A stretch of DNA of 23,684 bases. It comes from Gemmatimonadota bacterium. Its GTDB lineage: Bacteria; Gemmatimonadota; Gemmatimonadetes; Longimicrobiales; Gaopeijiaceae. The notes under the pieces are model-generated. The model was not told the origin of the DNA. It did no database searches and saw only the letters and a list, made by a program, of their open reading frames with translations. Location: positions 1-23,684 of the forward strand of contig JBDHHQ010000068.1 of assembly GCA_039589315.1 (NCBI GenBank), given 5' to 3'. This document shows positions 16,195 through 23,146 of this stretch, one piece after another. The first letter of the stretch is position 1. Each line of letters starts with the position of its first letter. The position numbers were made by a program, and so were the translations under genes.

Positions 16195-16206
16195 GTTCGT
16201 GCGAAG

Positions 16207-16288
16207 CGGAGCGGGAGGGACTCGAACCCCCAAGCCCGTTAGGGCGCCCGCTTTCGAGGCGGGTGCATTACCATTCTGCCACCGCTCC
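16207..16288 (-). tRNA. tRNA-Ser(CGA)
   Basis: Cloverleaf GGAGCGG/CCGCTCC; anticodon arm CCCGC-CTCGAAA-GCGGG; long variable arm; G73. Confidence 0.93.
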
Positions 16289-16355
16289 GGAGCGGTAGTG
16301 GGGCCCGAGGATTCTCTCCGGCTCCCGGCTCGACCACGATGGGTCGTCCACCATA

Positions 16356-16472
16356 CCAGTCGGGGCGCCCGGATTGATCTGCGGTCGGCTCGCGCCGATC
16401 CTCGATCGTCTCGCGGACCACCCCTCGAATTCGCCTTCGCTCTACACCGGCCAGGCCGCTCGGCTCGAACCG
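16356..16472 (-). repeat. 3'-end copy of tRNA-Pro(CGG) with a 90-nt insert in the T-loop (tRNA-linked repeat)
   Basis: 20-bp direct repeat CCAGTCGGGGCGCCCGGATT at 16356 and 16517; insert 16375-16464; T-arm 5' side TCGAACCG at 16465-16472. Confidence 0.8.
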
Positions 16473-16520
16473 TCTGTTCGAACCCGGGCGCCGTCAACGG
16501 TCAGGCGTCTATCCTTCCAG

Positions 16521-16594
16521 TCGGGGCGCCCGGATTCGAACCGGGGACCTCTGCGTCCCGAACGCAGCGCTCTACCGGACTGAGCCACGCCCCG
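16521..16594 (-). tRNA. tRNA-Pro(CGG)
   Basis: CGGGGCG/CGCCCCG acceptor; anticodon arm CTGCG-TTCGGGA-CGCAG; A73. Confidence 0.95.
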
Positions 16595-16609
16595 TCTTTG
16601 TCGTTCCCG

Positions 16610-16768
16610 CCAGGCGCCCGGATGGAGCTCGTCGGCTGCGCCTCCTCGCTCGTCTCGCGGACGATCCTTCTGATTCGCTTTCGCTCTGCCACCTGCTGGG
16701 CCGCTCGGCTCGAACCGGGGACCTCTGCGTCTCGAACGCAGCGCTCTACCGGACTGAGCCACGCCCCG
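16610..16768 (-). pseudogene. Interrupted tRNA-Pro-derived copy (anticodon CGA, 86-nt T-loop insert, damaged acceptor 3' strand)
   Basis: 16710-16768 matches 16536-16594 at 58/59 nt (only the anticodon differs, CGG to CGA); insert 16624-16709; the remainder at 16610-16623 matches the tRNA 3' end at 12/14. Confidence 0.8.
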
Positions 16769-16820
16769 TTCCCTGCTGTCGACCCGAAGACGTACGTCGG
16801 CTTCGGGGCCTTCCTACGAG

Positions 16821-16906
16821 CGGACGGGGTGGGATTCGAACCCACGAGGGTGTTTAGCCCCACACGATTTCCAATCGTGCGCCTTAAGCCACTCGGCCAC
16901 CCGTCC
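16821..16906 (-). tRNA. tRNA-Ser(GGA)
   Basis: Anticodon arm CACGA-TTGGAAA-TCGTG; long variable arm. Confidence 0.95.
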
Positions 16907-17004
16907 GAAACCAAGGCTGAGGCAAGGGAACCTCGCGGTTCCTGGGCGCCCCCTGGAACGGAGTCGGCCAGGTCCGGCTGGCGCCGCCAACCGCGGGATT
17001 GGAA

Positions 17005-17090
17005 CGGAGGGGGTGGGATTCGAACCCACGAGGCGATCTCTCGCCAACGCCTTAGCAGGGCGCCGCCTTAAGCCACTCGGCCACCCCTCC
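17005..17090 (-). tRNA. tRNA-Ser(GCT)
   Basis: Anticodon arm GCGCC-CTGCTAA-GGCGT; long variable arm. Confidence 0.95.
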
Positions 17091-17139
17091 AATGCGTACC
17101 GTACCCGAACGCTTGCCTCGCTCGGGCCGTTCTGTCAAG

Positions 17140-17212
17140 TAGCCCCGCCTGGGTTCGAACCAGGACTCTTCTGATCCAGAGTCAGACGTGTTGCCAATTA
17201 CACCACGGGGCT
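17140..17212 (-). tRNA. tRNA-Gln(CTG)
   Basis: Anticodon arm TCTGA-CTCTGGA-TCAGA; acceptor AGCCCCG/CGGGGCT. Confidence 0.93.
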
Positions 17213-17274
17213 ATTGATCCTCACCGCCATCGCCGCCGGCCCGGGTCGTCGAACCTACCCTGGCCGGCGACAAG

Positions 17275-17347
17275 AGCCACCACTCGGACTTGAACCGAGG
17301 ACCCCGTCATTACGAATGACGTGCTCTACCAGCTGAGCTATGGTGGC
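17275..17347 (-). tRNA. tRNA-Thr(CGT)
   Basis: Anticodon arm CGTCA-TTCGTAA-TGACG. Confidence 0.95.
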
Positions 17348-17358
17348 GCTTTCGTCAG

Positions 17359-17431
<73 letters not shown>

Positions 17432-17471
17432 GACCTCATCTTCTCGGGCGAATCAGACTCGTCGCCGTGCA

Positions 17472-17545
17472 TGGGCGCGAGAGGACTCGAACCTCTGACC
17501 TCTACGATGTCAACGTAGCGCTCTAACCAACTGAGCTACGCGCCC
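17472..17545 (-). tRNA. tRNA-Val(GAC)
   Basis: Anticodon arm CTACG-TTGACAT-CGTAG. Confidence 0.95.
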
Positions 17546-17580
17546 TCTCGACCCGCTCCCCGTGCTCGGGGAGAACAATA

Positions 17581-17654
17581 CGCGCCCGGGAGGACTCGAA
17601 CCCCCAACCTCCTGGTCCGTAGCCAGACGCTCTATCCAATTGAGCTACGGGCGC
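17581..17654 (-). tRNA. tRNA-Arg(ACG)
   Basis: Anticodon arm TCTGG-CTACGGA-CCAGG. Confidence 0.95.
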
Positions 17655-17697
17655 ACGCTGTGATCTGTTCCGTCGACTCGGTCGACCGCCCCATACG

Positions 17698-17838
17698 GTG
17701 GGACTTTTGGCTAAGCGATTCGGTGCAGATCAAGGCGGGCAAGGCGAGCGAGTGAGGCGTACTGCGCTACGCCGCAACGAGCCGAGTCCGCAGCCCAACG
17801 CCGAGCCTGCGCCAAATATCGACGCCAAAAGTGCCCAC
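17698..17838. repeat. ~140-nt long imperfect palindrome (MITE/REP-like element)
   Basis: Ends GTGGG-ACTTTTGGC / GCCAAAAGTGCCCAC; nested pairings CGAT/ATCG, GGTGCAG/CTGCGCC, GGCG/CGCC; apical GGCGTA/TACGCC. Confidence 0.7.
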
Positions 17839-17915
17839 GACAGGACTCGAACCTGTACGCCGTTTCCGACACTGGTCCCTCAAACCAGCCTGTCTACCAA
17901 TTCCAGCACGTGGGC
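17832..17915 (-). tRNA. tRNA-Leu(GAG)
   Basis: Anticodon arm CTGGT-TTGAGGG-ACCAG; variable arm; A73. Confidence 0.95.
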
Positions 17916-17973
17916 AACCTGATCCATCCTGGCCTTGCTGACCGGGTCCCTACCATGCTGGGCCCGGCCAAAA

Positions 17974-18058
17974 TGCTCGGGGAGGGACTCGAACCCTCAC
18001 CGGGGTAACCCCGACAGGATCCTGAATCCTGCGCGTCTACCAATTCCGCCACCCGAGC
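17974..18058 (-). tRNA. tRNA-Leu(CAG)
   Basis: Anticodon arm CAGGA-TTCAGGA-TCCTG; variable arm. Confidence 0.95.
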
Positions 18059-18081
18059 CGGGTTCTCTCAGCGAGAAACAG

Positions 18082-18154
18082 TGGAGCTGAGGGGAATCGA
18101 ACCCCTGACCTCCTGAATGCCATTCAGGCGCTCTCCCAACTGAGCTACAGCCCC
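18082..18154 (-). tRNA. tRNA-Ala(GGC)
   Basis: Anticodon arm CCTGA-ATGGCAT-TCAGG; G3.U70. Confidence 0.95.
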
Positions 18155-18240
18155 AGCGCATTCCGACGACCTGGTCGGTGAGTCGGATGCCCTCCGCTGG
18201 GGTCGGCATCCGTCACCTGCTTTTCAAATCAGCGATCCAG

Positions 18241-18314
18241 CGGGGCTGACGGGACTCGAACCCGCGGCCTCCGGTGTGACAGACCGGCACTCTAACCAAC
18301 TGAGCTACAGCCCC
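18241..18314 (-). tRNA. tRNA-Asp(GTC)
   Basis: Anticodon arm CCGGT-CTGTCAC-ACCGG. Confidence 0.95.
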
Positions 18315-18349
18315 CGTTCCTACGCAGGACCTCGTACCGGCGTCCTCAA

Positions 18350-18421
18350 TGCCCCCACGGGGAATCGAACCCCGGTCTCCACCTTGAAAGAGTGGTGTCC
18401 TAGCCGTTAGACGATGGGGGC
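18350..18421 (-). tRNA. tRNA-Glu(TTC)
   Basis: Anticodon arm CCACT-CTTTCAA-GGTGG. Confidence 0.95.
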
Positions 18422-18452
18422 TCCCAGACAGCGGGAACCGGCCACCTCGACA

Positions 18453-18525
18453 CAGGCCCGGAGGGACTCGAACCCCCAACCGCCGGTTTTGGAGACCGGT
18501 GCTCTACCAATTGAGCTACGGACCT
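18453..18525 (-). tRNA. tRNA-Trp(CCA)
   Basis: Anticodon arm CCGGT-CTCCAAA-ACCGG. Confidence 0.95.
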
Positions 18526-18562
18526 ACGAGCACCCTCTCCGATTCCCCTCGGCGGGTGCTGA

Positions 18563-18635
18563 TGGCTAGGGACGGAATCGAACCGCCGACACCGCGGTTT
18601 TCAGCCGCGTGCTCTACCAACTGAGCTACCTAGCC
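18563..18635 (-). tRNA. tRNA-Phe(GAA)
   Basis: Anticodon arm CGCGG-CTGAAAA-CCGCG. Confidence 0.95.
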
Positions 18636-18636
18636 G

Positions 18637-18671
18637 AAAAAGCCACCCGGGCTCGTGAGCCTCGGGGGGCT
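18637..18671 (-). terminator. Terminator-like hairpin with U-tract immediately before tRNA-Phe
   Basis: Minus strand AGCCCCCCGAGGCT-CACG-AGCCCGGGTGGCT-TTTT. Confidence 0.5.
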
Positions 18672-18812
18672 GCCTGCGGGACTCGCCGGTCGGTCCGTCG
18701 TCCGGTGCGCCCCGCCCGCCCGATCCTTCGGGCCCTTCACAGGTCGGCCCGCACGCGCGGGTACCTGTCCAACGTCACGAAAGCGCCGCCACTGGCGACG
18801 CTTCCTTTCAAA

Positions 18813-18886
<74 letters not shown>

Positions 18887-18898
18887 ACAAGGGGTGTT

Positions 18899-21808: not shown

Positions 21809-21882
21809 CGGGACGTGGCGCAGCCCGGTAGCGCACCTGAATGGGGTTCAGGGGGTCGCCGGTTCGAATCCGGCCGTCCCGA
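21809..21882 (+). tRNA. tRNA-Pro(GGG), probable integration site
   Basis: CGGGACG/CGTCCCG acceptor; anticodon arm CCTGA-ATGGGGT-TCAGG. Confidence 0.95.
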
Positions 21883-21894
21883 CTGTTAGAGGTT

Positions 21895-21927
21895 GAAGCC
21901 CTGCAACGACTTGCGTTGTGGGGCTTC
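21895..21927. terminator. Hairpin between tRNA-Pro and the convergent integrase
   Basis: GAAGCCC-TGCAACG...CGTTGTG-GGGCTTC. Confidence 0.6.
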
Positions 21928-21976
21928 TCTCGTCCCGGACCCGGTGGTGTGAGTTTTGTTGTGAGTTTCCTCACGC

Positions 21977-23146
21977 CTAGGGACTTGAAACGCGCTGCGT
22001 CGGGTGGAACACCACCTTCCGCACAGTCTCAGCGTCGGCCTGTTGGTACGCCCTGAGCACCGTTTGCTCATCCCGCCAACCGCCAGCCACCGCCACGTCC
22101 TTGAGCGGGTAACCCTTACGCTCCGTGACCCACTTCCGACGGATGGGGTGCCAGAGCCCGCCTGGCCGGGGTCTCATCTTCGCCTTCCGGTAGGCTCGCC
22201 GCAGCCAGTCGTCCAGCAGGTGCCGGCTGCAAGGTCTCGTGGGATCCCTCGGAGCCGGGAAGACCGGTGTATTGCCGATCGACTGCTGACTCCGCCGTAA
22301 TCCCCGCAAAGCCCCGCTGACCGCATCGCTCATCGGAGCGACCTGCTCGTACCCCATCTTGTCGTGCTTCGCTCGCCAACGGATGGTGCCAGCCCTGAAA
22401 TCGACGTCCTCCCATCGGAGCGTCCGCACAGCGGAGATCCGACGGCCCGTTCCTTCGGCCAACACGAGGGCGACCTCAAGGAGCGAGTGCACGCTGTCTG
22501 CCACCTTCAGAAGGCGCAGGTACTCGTCGTGCCTCATCACCGGTTGCCGAGGATTCGCCTCCCGAGGAAGGCTCACGCCCGCGAGGGGGTTCTCACTCAG
22601 CAACCGATCCCCCACGCGAGTCCGCTCCCCGGCTGCCCAGCGAAGCGCCGATACCAGACAAACCAGATCGGCTTGGACCGTTCGGTCGCGAATCCGCTCG
22701 CCAGGGACCACCGCAACGAGAGAGGCATCCCCCCGGCGTCGCGCAACGACGAAACGCGCCACGTCGGACTCGCACAGGCTCTTCACATTACGGTCCTGAC
22801 CGAGGAACGCGACCACCCTCTTCAGCTTCGTGGCATCGTCGCGCTGAGTACGCTTCTTCTTCCTCTCGTGCCTTGGGCTTTCCAGATAGAGCCTCGCCAG
22901 CAATCCAAGCGTGAGGCTTTCCTGGTCGATCGCCGTCTCGTTCGCGAGTAGCGCGCTGAGCAGCTGGTACGCTTGTCGGATGGCCACCTCTCGATCGCGG
23001 TGCCCTAAGCTCTTCCGATCCTCCTTTCCGTTGATGTAGACCGACCGCATGATGGGGCCGCCGGGTCTCGCCTCGTAGAGTCGAACTCGGTGCCCCCGTT
23101 CGCCGATGGACCTCGACCAGCACCGTCCAAGTTTCCTCTTCGTCAT
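21977..23146 (-). CDS. Tyrosine recombinase / phage-type integrase
   Basis: Catalytic set R (GTGRRISA), K (HDK), HxxR (WHPIRR), W (GGW), Y (RAY). Confidence 0.9.
   Translation of the reverse strand: MTKRKLGRCWSRSIGERGHRVRLYEARPGGPIMRSVYINGKEDRKSLGHRDREVAIRQAYQLLSALLANETAIDQESLTLGLLARLYLESPRHERKKKRTQRDDATKLKRVVAFLGQDRNVKSLCESDVARFVVARRRGDASLVAVVPGERIRDRTVQADLVCLVSALRWAAGERTRVGDRLLSENPLAGVSLPREANPRQPVMRHDEYLRLLKVADSVHSLLEVALVLAEGTGRRISAVRTLRWEDVDFRAGTIRWRAKHDKMGYEQVAPMSDAVSGALRGLRRSQQSIGNTPVFPAPRDPTRPCSRHLLDDWLRRAYRKAKMRPRPGGLWHPIRRKWVTERKGYPLKDVAVAGGWRDEQTVLRAYQQADAETVRKVVFHPTQRVSSP

Follow-up and report, generated by a model that had tools for sequence, protein, structure and literature searches.

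The two inserts that break tRNA-Pro sequence in the window (the whole 23,684-nt stretch of Gemmatimonadota DNA analysed here) are members of a real, undescribed family of gene-less repeats of 80–95 nt. Insert A (16709-16624, minus strand, 86 nt) and insert B (16464-16375, minus strand, 90 nt) both lie between GGTTCGA and ATCCGGGCGCC, exactly at the T-loop point GGTTCGA^ATCC. A preliminary description of this DNA had reported two related inserts of about 86–90 nt at one T-loop position, and both its coordinates and the position proved exact. Their identity is 81.7% over 82 nt, and blastn against the genome gave an E value of about 1e-13, far above chance. Read along the minus strand, the locus runs from a tRNA-Pro 5' part through insert A, an 11-nt tail, the intact tRNA-Pro(CGG), a mirror copy and GGTTCGA to insert B and a 19-nt tail repeat:

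16710..16768, minus strand: 5' part of a dead tRNA-Pro copy, the host of copy A; 58 of 59 nt as in the intact gene, with the anticodon changed from CGG to CGA at 16732
16624..16709, minus strand: element copy A, 86 nt; covariance model score 60.4 bits; predicted fold with arm P1 formed by 16709-16701 and 16660-16652, a 40-nt loop enclosing a central mini-hairpin (16686-16675), and a 3' arm (16651-16625) that has a GCA triloop and whose internal loop is decayed
16613..16623, minus strand: truncated tRNA tail after copy A, comprising the T-stem 3' strand and part of the acceptor strand
16521..16594, minus strand: intact tRNA-Pro(CGG), 67.7 bits; the sole intron-less Pro(CGG) call by ARAGORN in this assembly
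16476..16492, minus strand: mirror (inverted) copy of T-arm and tail, 94% complementary to 16525-16541
16465..16471, minus strand: GGTTCGA, the 5' side of the T-loop and left junction of copy B
16375..16464, minus strand: element copy B, 90 nt; covariance model score 81.7 bits; orthologue at locus L029 in genome G022; predicted fold with P1 formed by 16464-16456 and 16416-16408, a 39-nt loop with a mini-hairpin (16442-16431), arm P3 formed by 16407-16404 and 16379-16376, and a terminal hairpin with a GCGA loop
16356..16374, minus strand: direct repeat of 19 nt from the tRNA-Pro 3' tail, identical to 16535-16517

Both hosts had been described as copies of tRNA-Pro(CGG). For copy A the complete tRNA-Pro 5' part bears this out except in the anticodon, which reads CGA after the one change, and ARAGORN labels the copy tRNA-Ser(CGA). 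Its acceptor 3' strand ends after ATCCGGGCGCC; because of this cut and the CGA anticodon, the copy is dead with or without the insert. Acceptor strands cut after about 9–12 nt, as behind copy A, also occur at L033, L052, L108, L135, L208, L209, L250, and L304. The host piece of copy B is a fragment rather than a tRNA copy, consisting only of GGTTCGA and the 19-nt tail repeat. It had also been stated that removal of the inserts restores the T-arm exactly; for copy B the T-loop is indeed restored, yet just three of the five T-stem pairs form. The mirror copy at 16492-16476 can fold back on the GGTTCGA/ATCC tail surrounding copy B. An assembly artefact is unlikely for copy B because an orthologue is present in G022 (L029) and because a contig from sequencing run X1 spans 16347-16535 with 21 differences. 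No long piece from the runs covers copy A, but the same layout is found at L033, L208, and L209.

The surroundings of the locus hold further features. The region 16206-18887 carries 17 co-oriented tRNA genes in addition to the dead copy A, and the Ser-Pro-Ser order is the same in many relatives. An imperfect long hairpin lies between tRNA-Leu(GAG) and tRNA-Arg(ACG) at 17700-17835; by eye it has the CAGTACGCCTC core of a second repeat family that hosts inserts (L034, L041), and kin of it occur on contigs C85, C3, and C199 of G000. At 21809-23146, a plus-strand tRNA-Pro(GGG) has a phage integrase gene (21977-23146, minus strand) right behind it, likely an island junction.

Homologues are dispersed through this genome and its relatives, as the BLAST and profile check proposed earlier has shown. 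Iterative nhmmer found 17 copies in this genome and the covariance model found 19. Among the 17 nhmmer copies, 14 run straight into ATCC and a tRNA tail, two into decayed tails and one into none. Four of the 17 are on contigs C184 and C142, whose match coordinates are identical to those of contigs C104 and C209 of genome G313; this suggests that C184 and C142 may be co-binned, the same contigs standing in two genomes. Of 201 genomes in the Gemmatimonadota family to which this genome belongs, 45 contain a match to a right-arm pattern and none a match to the reversed-pattern control; the right-arm pattern also matched at least 122 metagenome stretches. With a left-end pattern, 9 of 41 relatives gave a match, this genome being counted in and one of the nine matching by chance. 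In the species-genome collection, the left-end pattern matched 106 stretches, and 70 of the 80 listed with titles were named Gemmatimonadota; the other ten listed comprise, by our reading, six without the right arm, which resemble chance matches, and four true copies in records titled as other phyla. A stricter covariance-model search across the phylum matched 5 of 151 genomes, four of them from this family. All 39 loose-pattern matches in IMG/VR lacked the right arm and the T-loop context, giving no true copy there, and the plasmid and phage collections yielded short chance matches but no true copy.

An Rfam search of the inserts, including RtT as the preliminary description had advised, returned tRNA only, both at the gathering score and down to E 10, and no intron or other family was matched. 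We found no publication that describes such a family, or T-loop inserts that lack genes, in a mostly open-access literature. The available text of PMC7002104, PMC4129139, and bioRxiv 10.1101/2022.07.05.498093 does not treat the element, and TRIP1 repeats are not described as tRNA-linked in the available text of PMC10888264. Nothing points to recent spread: variable loops at different targets of one genome have an identity of 0.52, as compared with 0.51 for loops from different genomes. Shorter or different inserts with GNA hairpins lie beside duplicated Pro(CGG) tails at L211, L212, L213, L218, and L227, some at the same T-loop point; possibly they form a graded series of related elements.

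Insertion is precise to the base where empty alleles exist. Parsing gave 121 rows (24 further ones had no callable right end), of which six were dropped as chance or mis-parsed matches, leaving 115 rows with 110 distinct inserts. At the junction GA^, the right flank of the 115 rows reads AT in 94, CT in 9, and GT in 2; the search patterns themselves dictate the left GA and a large part of the preference for T-loops. The intact T-loops of this genome (n = 39) read GA^GT in 22 cases and GA^AT in 9, and a strong preference for T-loops reading GA^AT over those reading GA^GT is thus shown. An exact empty site within the same locus was found for 62 of the 115 rows (53 upstream, 7 downstream, and two self-matches) by a test that required 11 exact letters and so missed decayed tails. 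A similarity ranking against a query containing copy A gave 29 orthologous Pro(CGG) loci, of which 5 were filled and most were empty.

Looser searches revealed sites outside the T-loop: in the anticodon arm of Pro(GGG) (L032, L092), in tmRNA tails, in a palindrome behind gidA (L028), in another copy of the element (L020, L115), and in the second hairpin repeat (L034, L041), of which empty copies exist. The copy at L028, near position 1500, is inserted in a repeat of the palindrome directly behind gidA/mnmG, a palindrome that resembles parS. Copies also occur in protein-coding DNA, on either strand. An IS91-like transposase gene at L424 contains a 90-nt copy at a point where three homologues are uninterrupted, and L018 is filled at the same site. 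A second site in such a gene (L423) carries a copy on the opposite strand, and eight alignments span its junction; no alignment spans the junction at L021 or L028. The insert at L424 (1955-2048) leaves the transposase reading frame open and adds 30 codons to it. Target duplication was not seen in any comparison of empty alleles. Base-precise insertion without target duplication is shown where empty alleles exist. The proposal of a mini-element that targets T-loops has gained a dispersed family, covariation, precise insertions, empty alleles and the lack of an Rfam match; the targeting extends beyond tRNA.

At host tRNA genes, copies lie in duplicated or broken pieces, commonly adjoining an intact gene. 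Among 173 inserts with flanks, removal of the insert gave a D-arm or an ARAGORN call in 17: three are the genes of L048, ten are full-length host-type copies, and four are fragments. In all ten of the full-length host-type interrupted copies the acceptor strand is cut shortly past the T-stem. Joined flanks gave any ARAGORN call in 13 of the 115 rows. At L048, three different copies cleanly interrupt one Asn and two Pro genes of a foreign tRNA array, with acceptor stems intact and no duplication, and splicing out the insert would turn each of these three genes into a perfect tRNA. The array (L048:1550-3650) is dense and foreign-looking, and lies in a closed Longimicrobiales chromosome.

A fold-back motif stands in front of 72 of 191 copies, as compared with 7 of 40 intact tRNAs, a modest excess; at L232 and L235 it tracks the local T-loop variant. 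Arrays built of tail, spacer, fold-back and insert, in units of 140–200 bp, begin at the T-loop and often end within the last unit. A bare left end stands behind the last copy in at most 24 of 133 cases, an upper bound. The filled tRNA genes L092 and L093 have opposite orientations a few kb apart on one contig, and there is therefore no strict dependence on replication direction. Other arrangements were noted at tRNA-Ser genes. L007:3750-6900, beside an integrase remnant, is made up of repeated modules of 1.3–1.5 kb, and at the end of each stand arm-like AGACGCA repeats and a tRNA-Ser fragment with an insert. A tRNA-Ser(TGA) call at G000:C1:164791-164868 is just 78 nt long and seems to be without most of its variable arm, and attR-like fragments of tRNA-Ser(TGA) on C27 and C184 keep theirs.

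Next, we consider the fold of the element, which shows only through covariation. Single-sequence folding of inserts A and B was not significant against shuffles (z of 0.13 and 0.44), and the structure emerged in the family alignment. RNAalifold was applied to an alignment of 94 of the 110 distinct inserts, from which short and irregular ones were omitted, and predicted two arms. A C-G pair, then tandem G-A mismatches, then four pairs join the insert 5' end to CCGCGAGAC in the first arm (P1), which closes a variable loop. The second arm (P3/P4) has a 4-bp helix followed by a GA/GCA internal loop, two more pairs and the terminal hairpin. Over the 94 copies the covariation score was 0.230, compared with 0.066 in shuffled alignments and 0.014–0.069 in slid controls, and none of 500 shuffles scored as high, though relatedness among copies can inflate this value. 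Of the small hairpins first noticed, GGC-GC(G)A-GCC is real, while GUC-CGCGA-GAC is not part of the conserved fold, since CCGCGAGAC pairs with the insert 5' end.

P1 was invariant in the first set because the search pattern had fixed it. In a set selected through the other arm (n = 88), P1 is fully paired in 68 copies and occurs in six types: GCGG/CCGC (44), GGCG/CGCC (13), GCGA/TCGC (5), GGGG/CCCC (4), and two singles. It varies in step likewise at loci picked by tRNA similarity. The X1 orthologue of copy B carries a compensatory double change, altering both sides of one pair (16378 and 16405), which shows selection in place. This weighs against a spent passenger, because such a passenger would not need selection in place. 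The variable loop spans about 29–44 nt overall and 31–33 nt in 70 of the 110 distinct inserts, and is about 51–54% alike between loci. It has no self-complementarity (mean z of −0.04, 77 copies). A role as a guide or captured spacer was rejected, as the loops of 109 copies did not match the adjoining 250 nt, on either strand, above expectation.

C(GNA)G triloops form the terminal cap in 90 of 110 copies and GNRA in one, and G-T pairs make up 4 of 532; in the first set, the counts were 72 of 110 for C(GNA)G and 10 of 570 for G-T. Copy B itself has a GNRA cap. According to the available text of PMC13037366, GCGNAGC/GCGNNAGC mini-hairpins are extra-stable in DNA and much weaker in RNA, the RNA counterpart melting at just 39 C, and are found at phage and plasmid priming sites, including those of G4 and RSF1010. 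The dominance of C(GNA)G caps and the rarity of G-T pairs point to a fold that would act as single-stranded DNA rather than as RNA. In six RNA runs coverage was confined to tRNAs, with none over the inserts, which has no bearing on expression or splicing; the sequencing runs each contained 0.20 or less of the sequence words.

We consider it probable that the family is a non-autonomous single-stranded DNA mini-transposon, comparable to PATEs or SMRs, which is aimed at GA^AT, is moved by an enzyme acting in trans, and is accompanied by duplications that rescue the tRNA. The fold would form in single-stranded DNA exposed by transcription, replication or rolling-circle intermediates, and an HUH- or Ssn-like enzyme supplied in trans would cut and join at GA^. 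Insertion into an essential single-copy tRNA gene would be tolerated only if a tandem duplication restored an intact gene. Two layouts would follow from such a rescue, and both are present in the window: layout A, with the filled copy upstream of the intact gene, and layout B, with the intact gene upstream of the fold-back and the filled tail. The arrays of 140–200 bp units may have been built later by unequal exchange or re-replication. Several results weigh against this reading: neither a mobiliser nor an ORF-bearing version turned up, recent spread left no trace, selection acts in place, the L048 genes would give perfect tRNAs on splicing, and copy B has a GNRA cap.

Our search for a mobilising enzyme found none among the candidates examined. 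Y1_Tnp is absent from this genome and was found in 10 of 201 family genomes, three of them element-bearing. No covariance-model match lay near 14 Y1 loci or one small GIY-YIG locus. The small GIY-YIG gene was rejected as mobiliser, being present in one of ten element-bearing genomes tested and carrying other repeats there; at E 1e-10, a search of the 201 genomes found one short frame at a contig end. At L198:1150-2000 in genome G190, a different palindromic repeat occurs in several copies on both sides of a stand-alone small GIY-YIG gene with a 102-codon frame, a unit resembling Ssn-SRM. The UvrC-like GIY-YIG protein was rejected as near-universal (145/201), and a weak model match inside its gene in G001 was set aside as a codon coincidence. 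IS110 (above cut-off in 2/5 element-rich genomes) and RVT_1 (2/5) were likewise discarded. The 109 flanking ORFs shared no common mobile-element family, and none of 110 right-arm matches revealed an autonomous version with an ORF between the ends. Y2_Tnp was found in 34 of 45 element-bearing and 48 of 156 other genomes (Fisher p 1e-7, kin not being independent); because of this non-independence, and because mobile-element load is a confounder, the link was not accepted as evidence. The ends of the IS91-like element of G010 have no resemblance to the repeat family (no HMM match at loci L380-L414). That element is about 2.5 kb long (L415:1005-3498), has seven identical-scoring transposase copies, and repeats its left end in inverted form about 80 nt inward of the right end.

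Several known systems resemble the family in part. PATEs of Haloquadratum derive from IS605 ends, and SMR-A of the same genus, about 110 bp long, targets other mobile elements by a mobilisation left unexplained in the available text of PMC3119063. As far as that text goes, our family is like both in being short, transposase-free and palindrome-bearing, in making no target duplication, and in landing in mobile elements; PATE-type features found here are the lack of terminal inverted repeats and of target duplication together with near-terminal palindromes. Unlike PATEs as presented there, the family has no parent IS that we could find, with neither homology to IS200/IS605 ends nor a Y1 TnpA in this genome. 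SMRs, by the same source, have terminal inverted repeats and more than 95% identity between copies, whereas the fold of this family is branched and covaries, its free loop measures about 32 nt, and tRNA T-loops are its preferred target. In REP/REPIN systems the RAYT gene is flanked by the repeat, which has hundreds of copies; here there is no Y1_Tnp in the genome, no model match at Y1 loci, and 17–19 copies.

In the Ssn system, a small GIY-YIG gene is bordered by SRMs of 20–50 nt (Chenal et al. 2025, PMC11893778, in its main text, where the word tRNA is absent). Like Ssn NTS/SRM in that account, our elements are oriented hairpin repeats that would be read as single-stranded DNA, and this enzyme class could plausibly cut beside a hairpin; unlike them, the family element is flanked by no small GIY-YIG gene. 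For the IS91 family, the available text of PMC13181058 gives a single-stranded DNA intermediate, no target duplication, one fixed and one leaky end, and a GTTC or CTTG target. The lack of target duplication is shared, a single-stranded DNA intermediate and a fixed end paired with a leaky one would be too, and Y2_Tnp co-occurs, confounded as described above; unlike IS91, with its oriIS and terIS ends, our family inserts after GA and inside such genes rather than flanking them.

Host enzymes might do the work unaided. We regard as unlikely, though worth keeping in view, that the family is minimal selfish DNA without a transposase of its own, whose branched single-stranded fold would be read by host replication or repair enzymes, would be inserted base-precisely into T-loops and other single-stranded DNA hairpins, and would drive the duplications that save the tRNA. 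Distinctly improbable, in our judgement, is a signal for primosome assembly or priming that the host reads in single-stranded DNA, at which replication-restart proteins would cause local re-replication, tail duplication and spread without an own transposase. There is room for such a signal because no near-identical copies occur at different targets and because copy B is under apparent selection in place; the ragged array ends, the bare left ends behind up to 24 of 133 last copies and the failure to find a dedicated enzyme also agree with it. By eye, the phiX174 F-G intergenic stretch has GA mismatches flanking a GCGG/CCGC stem followed by a GAA mini-hairpin, and we take this stretch to be a PriA assembly site. 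We know of no insertion of PriA primosome sites into tRNA genes. The likeness by eye to the phiX174 stretch extends to folded single-stranded DNA, G-A mismatches and a GNA mini-hairpin; PriA assembly sites, among them phiX174 n'-pas and ColE1 ssiA, are covered in the available text of PMC3167613 and PMC5935869. Mini-hairpins also stand at the G4 and RSF1010 priming sites (PMC13037366, available text). The family covariance model gives nothing at the phiX174 stretch. Priming alone would, moreover, leave base-precise insertion into unrelated genes unexplained, and most relatives are without the element at the same locus.

Readings at the RNA level fare worse. A very small new tRNA intron, or an RNA capable of reverse splicing, that leaves the T-loop at the RNA level would account for the constant tRNA sense orientation and the single T-loop position, and for the three full-length L048 genes, whose acceptor stems are intact; tandem G-A pairs, moreover, are stable in RNA too. 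We consider it very unlikely, as host-type full-length copies have cut acceptor strands, the anticodon of copy A is changed, so few joined flanks yield an ARAGORN call, copies lie in protein-coding DNA on both strands, the loops are of DNA type, no Rfam intron matches, and RVT_1 occurs in only two of five element-rich genomes. Compared with tRNA group I/II introns, the family has inserts of 86–90 nt in the window, and copy A is dead after removal, the L048 genes being the exception. The preliminary description had offered a structured RNA released by tRNA processing as one of its two readings. Tandem units with a tRNA 3' end stand behind the intact tRNA gene in the tyrT trailer (rtT) of E. coli, and layout B, with its 140–200 bp tail units behind the gene, fits this arrangement; the unit of our family differs in holding a separately mobile T-loop insert. 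The window copies lie within a tRNA cluster and are probably co-transcribed with it, and the family covaries, as an rtT-like small RNA kept by the host in tRNA trailers would. Even so, such an RNA is no longer favoured and has, we think, a slim chance of being correct: RtT (RF00391, threshold 45 bits) had no score in the window or in five element-rich genomes while the E. coli control was positive, and the non-tRNA sites, among them coding sequence on either strand, the rare G-U pairs and GNRA loops, and the patchy distribution all stand against it. Least credible to us is a working part, or an inactivating plug, of the att sites of integrative elements that target tRNAs. Several copies do occur in attR-like fragments of tRNA-Ser, Pro and Met beside integrase remnants or cargo, but many are without a surrounding island (the window copies, L029, L044, L058), a phage integrase makes up 1 of the 109 flanking ORFs, IMG/VR gave no true copy among its 39 pattern matches, and the sites in IS91-like genes are not att sites.

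Gene-less hairpin elements with unidentified movers are already known; this family is set apart by base-precise targeting of the T-loop, a branched fold of DNA type, and the proposed rescue duplications. That an element of less than 100 nt inserts site-specifically into the best-conserved motif of tRNA implies a single-stranded DNA recombinase or nuclease with a short target read by structure. Such an enzyme would be of interest to groups working on mobile DNA and to those building tools. The family also explains a class of pseudo-tRNA calls, such as that of copy A as tRNA-Ser(CGA), and a class of tRNA-tail tandem arrays, and it provides a defined substrate for testing how tRNA-tail arrays originate.
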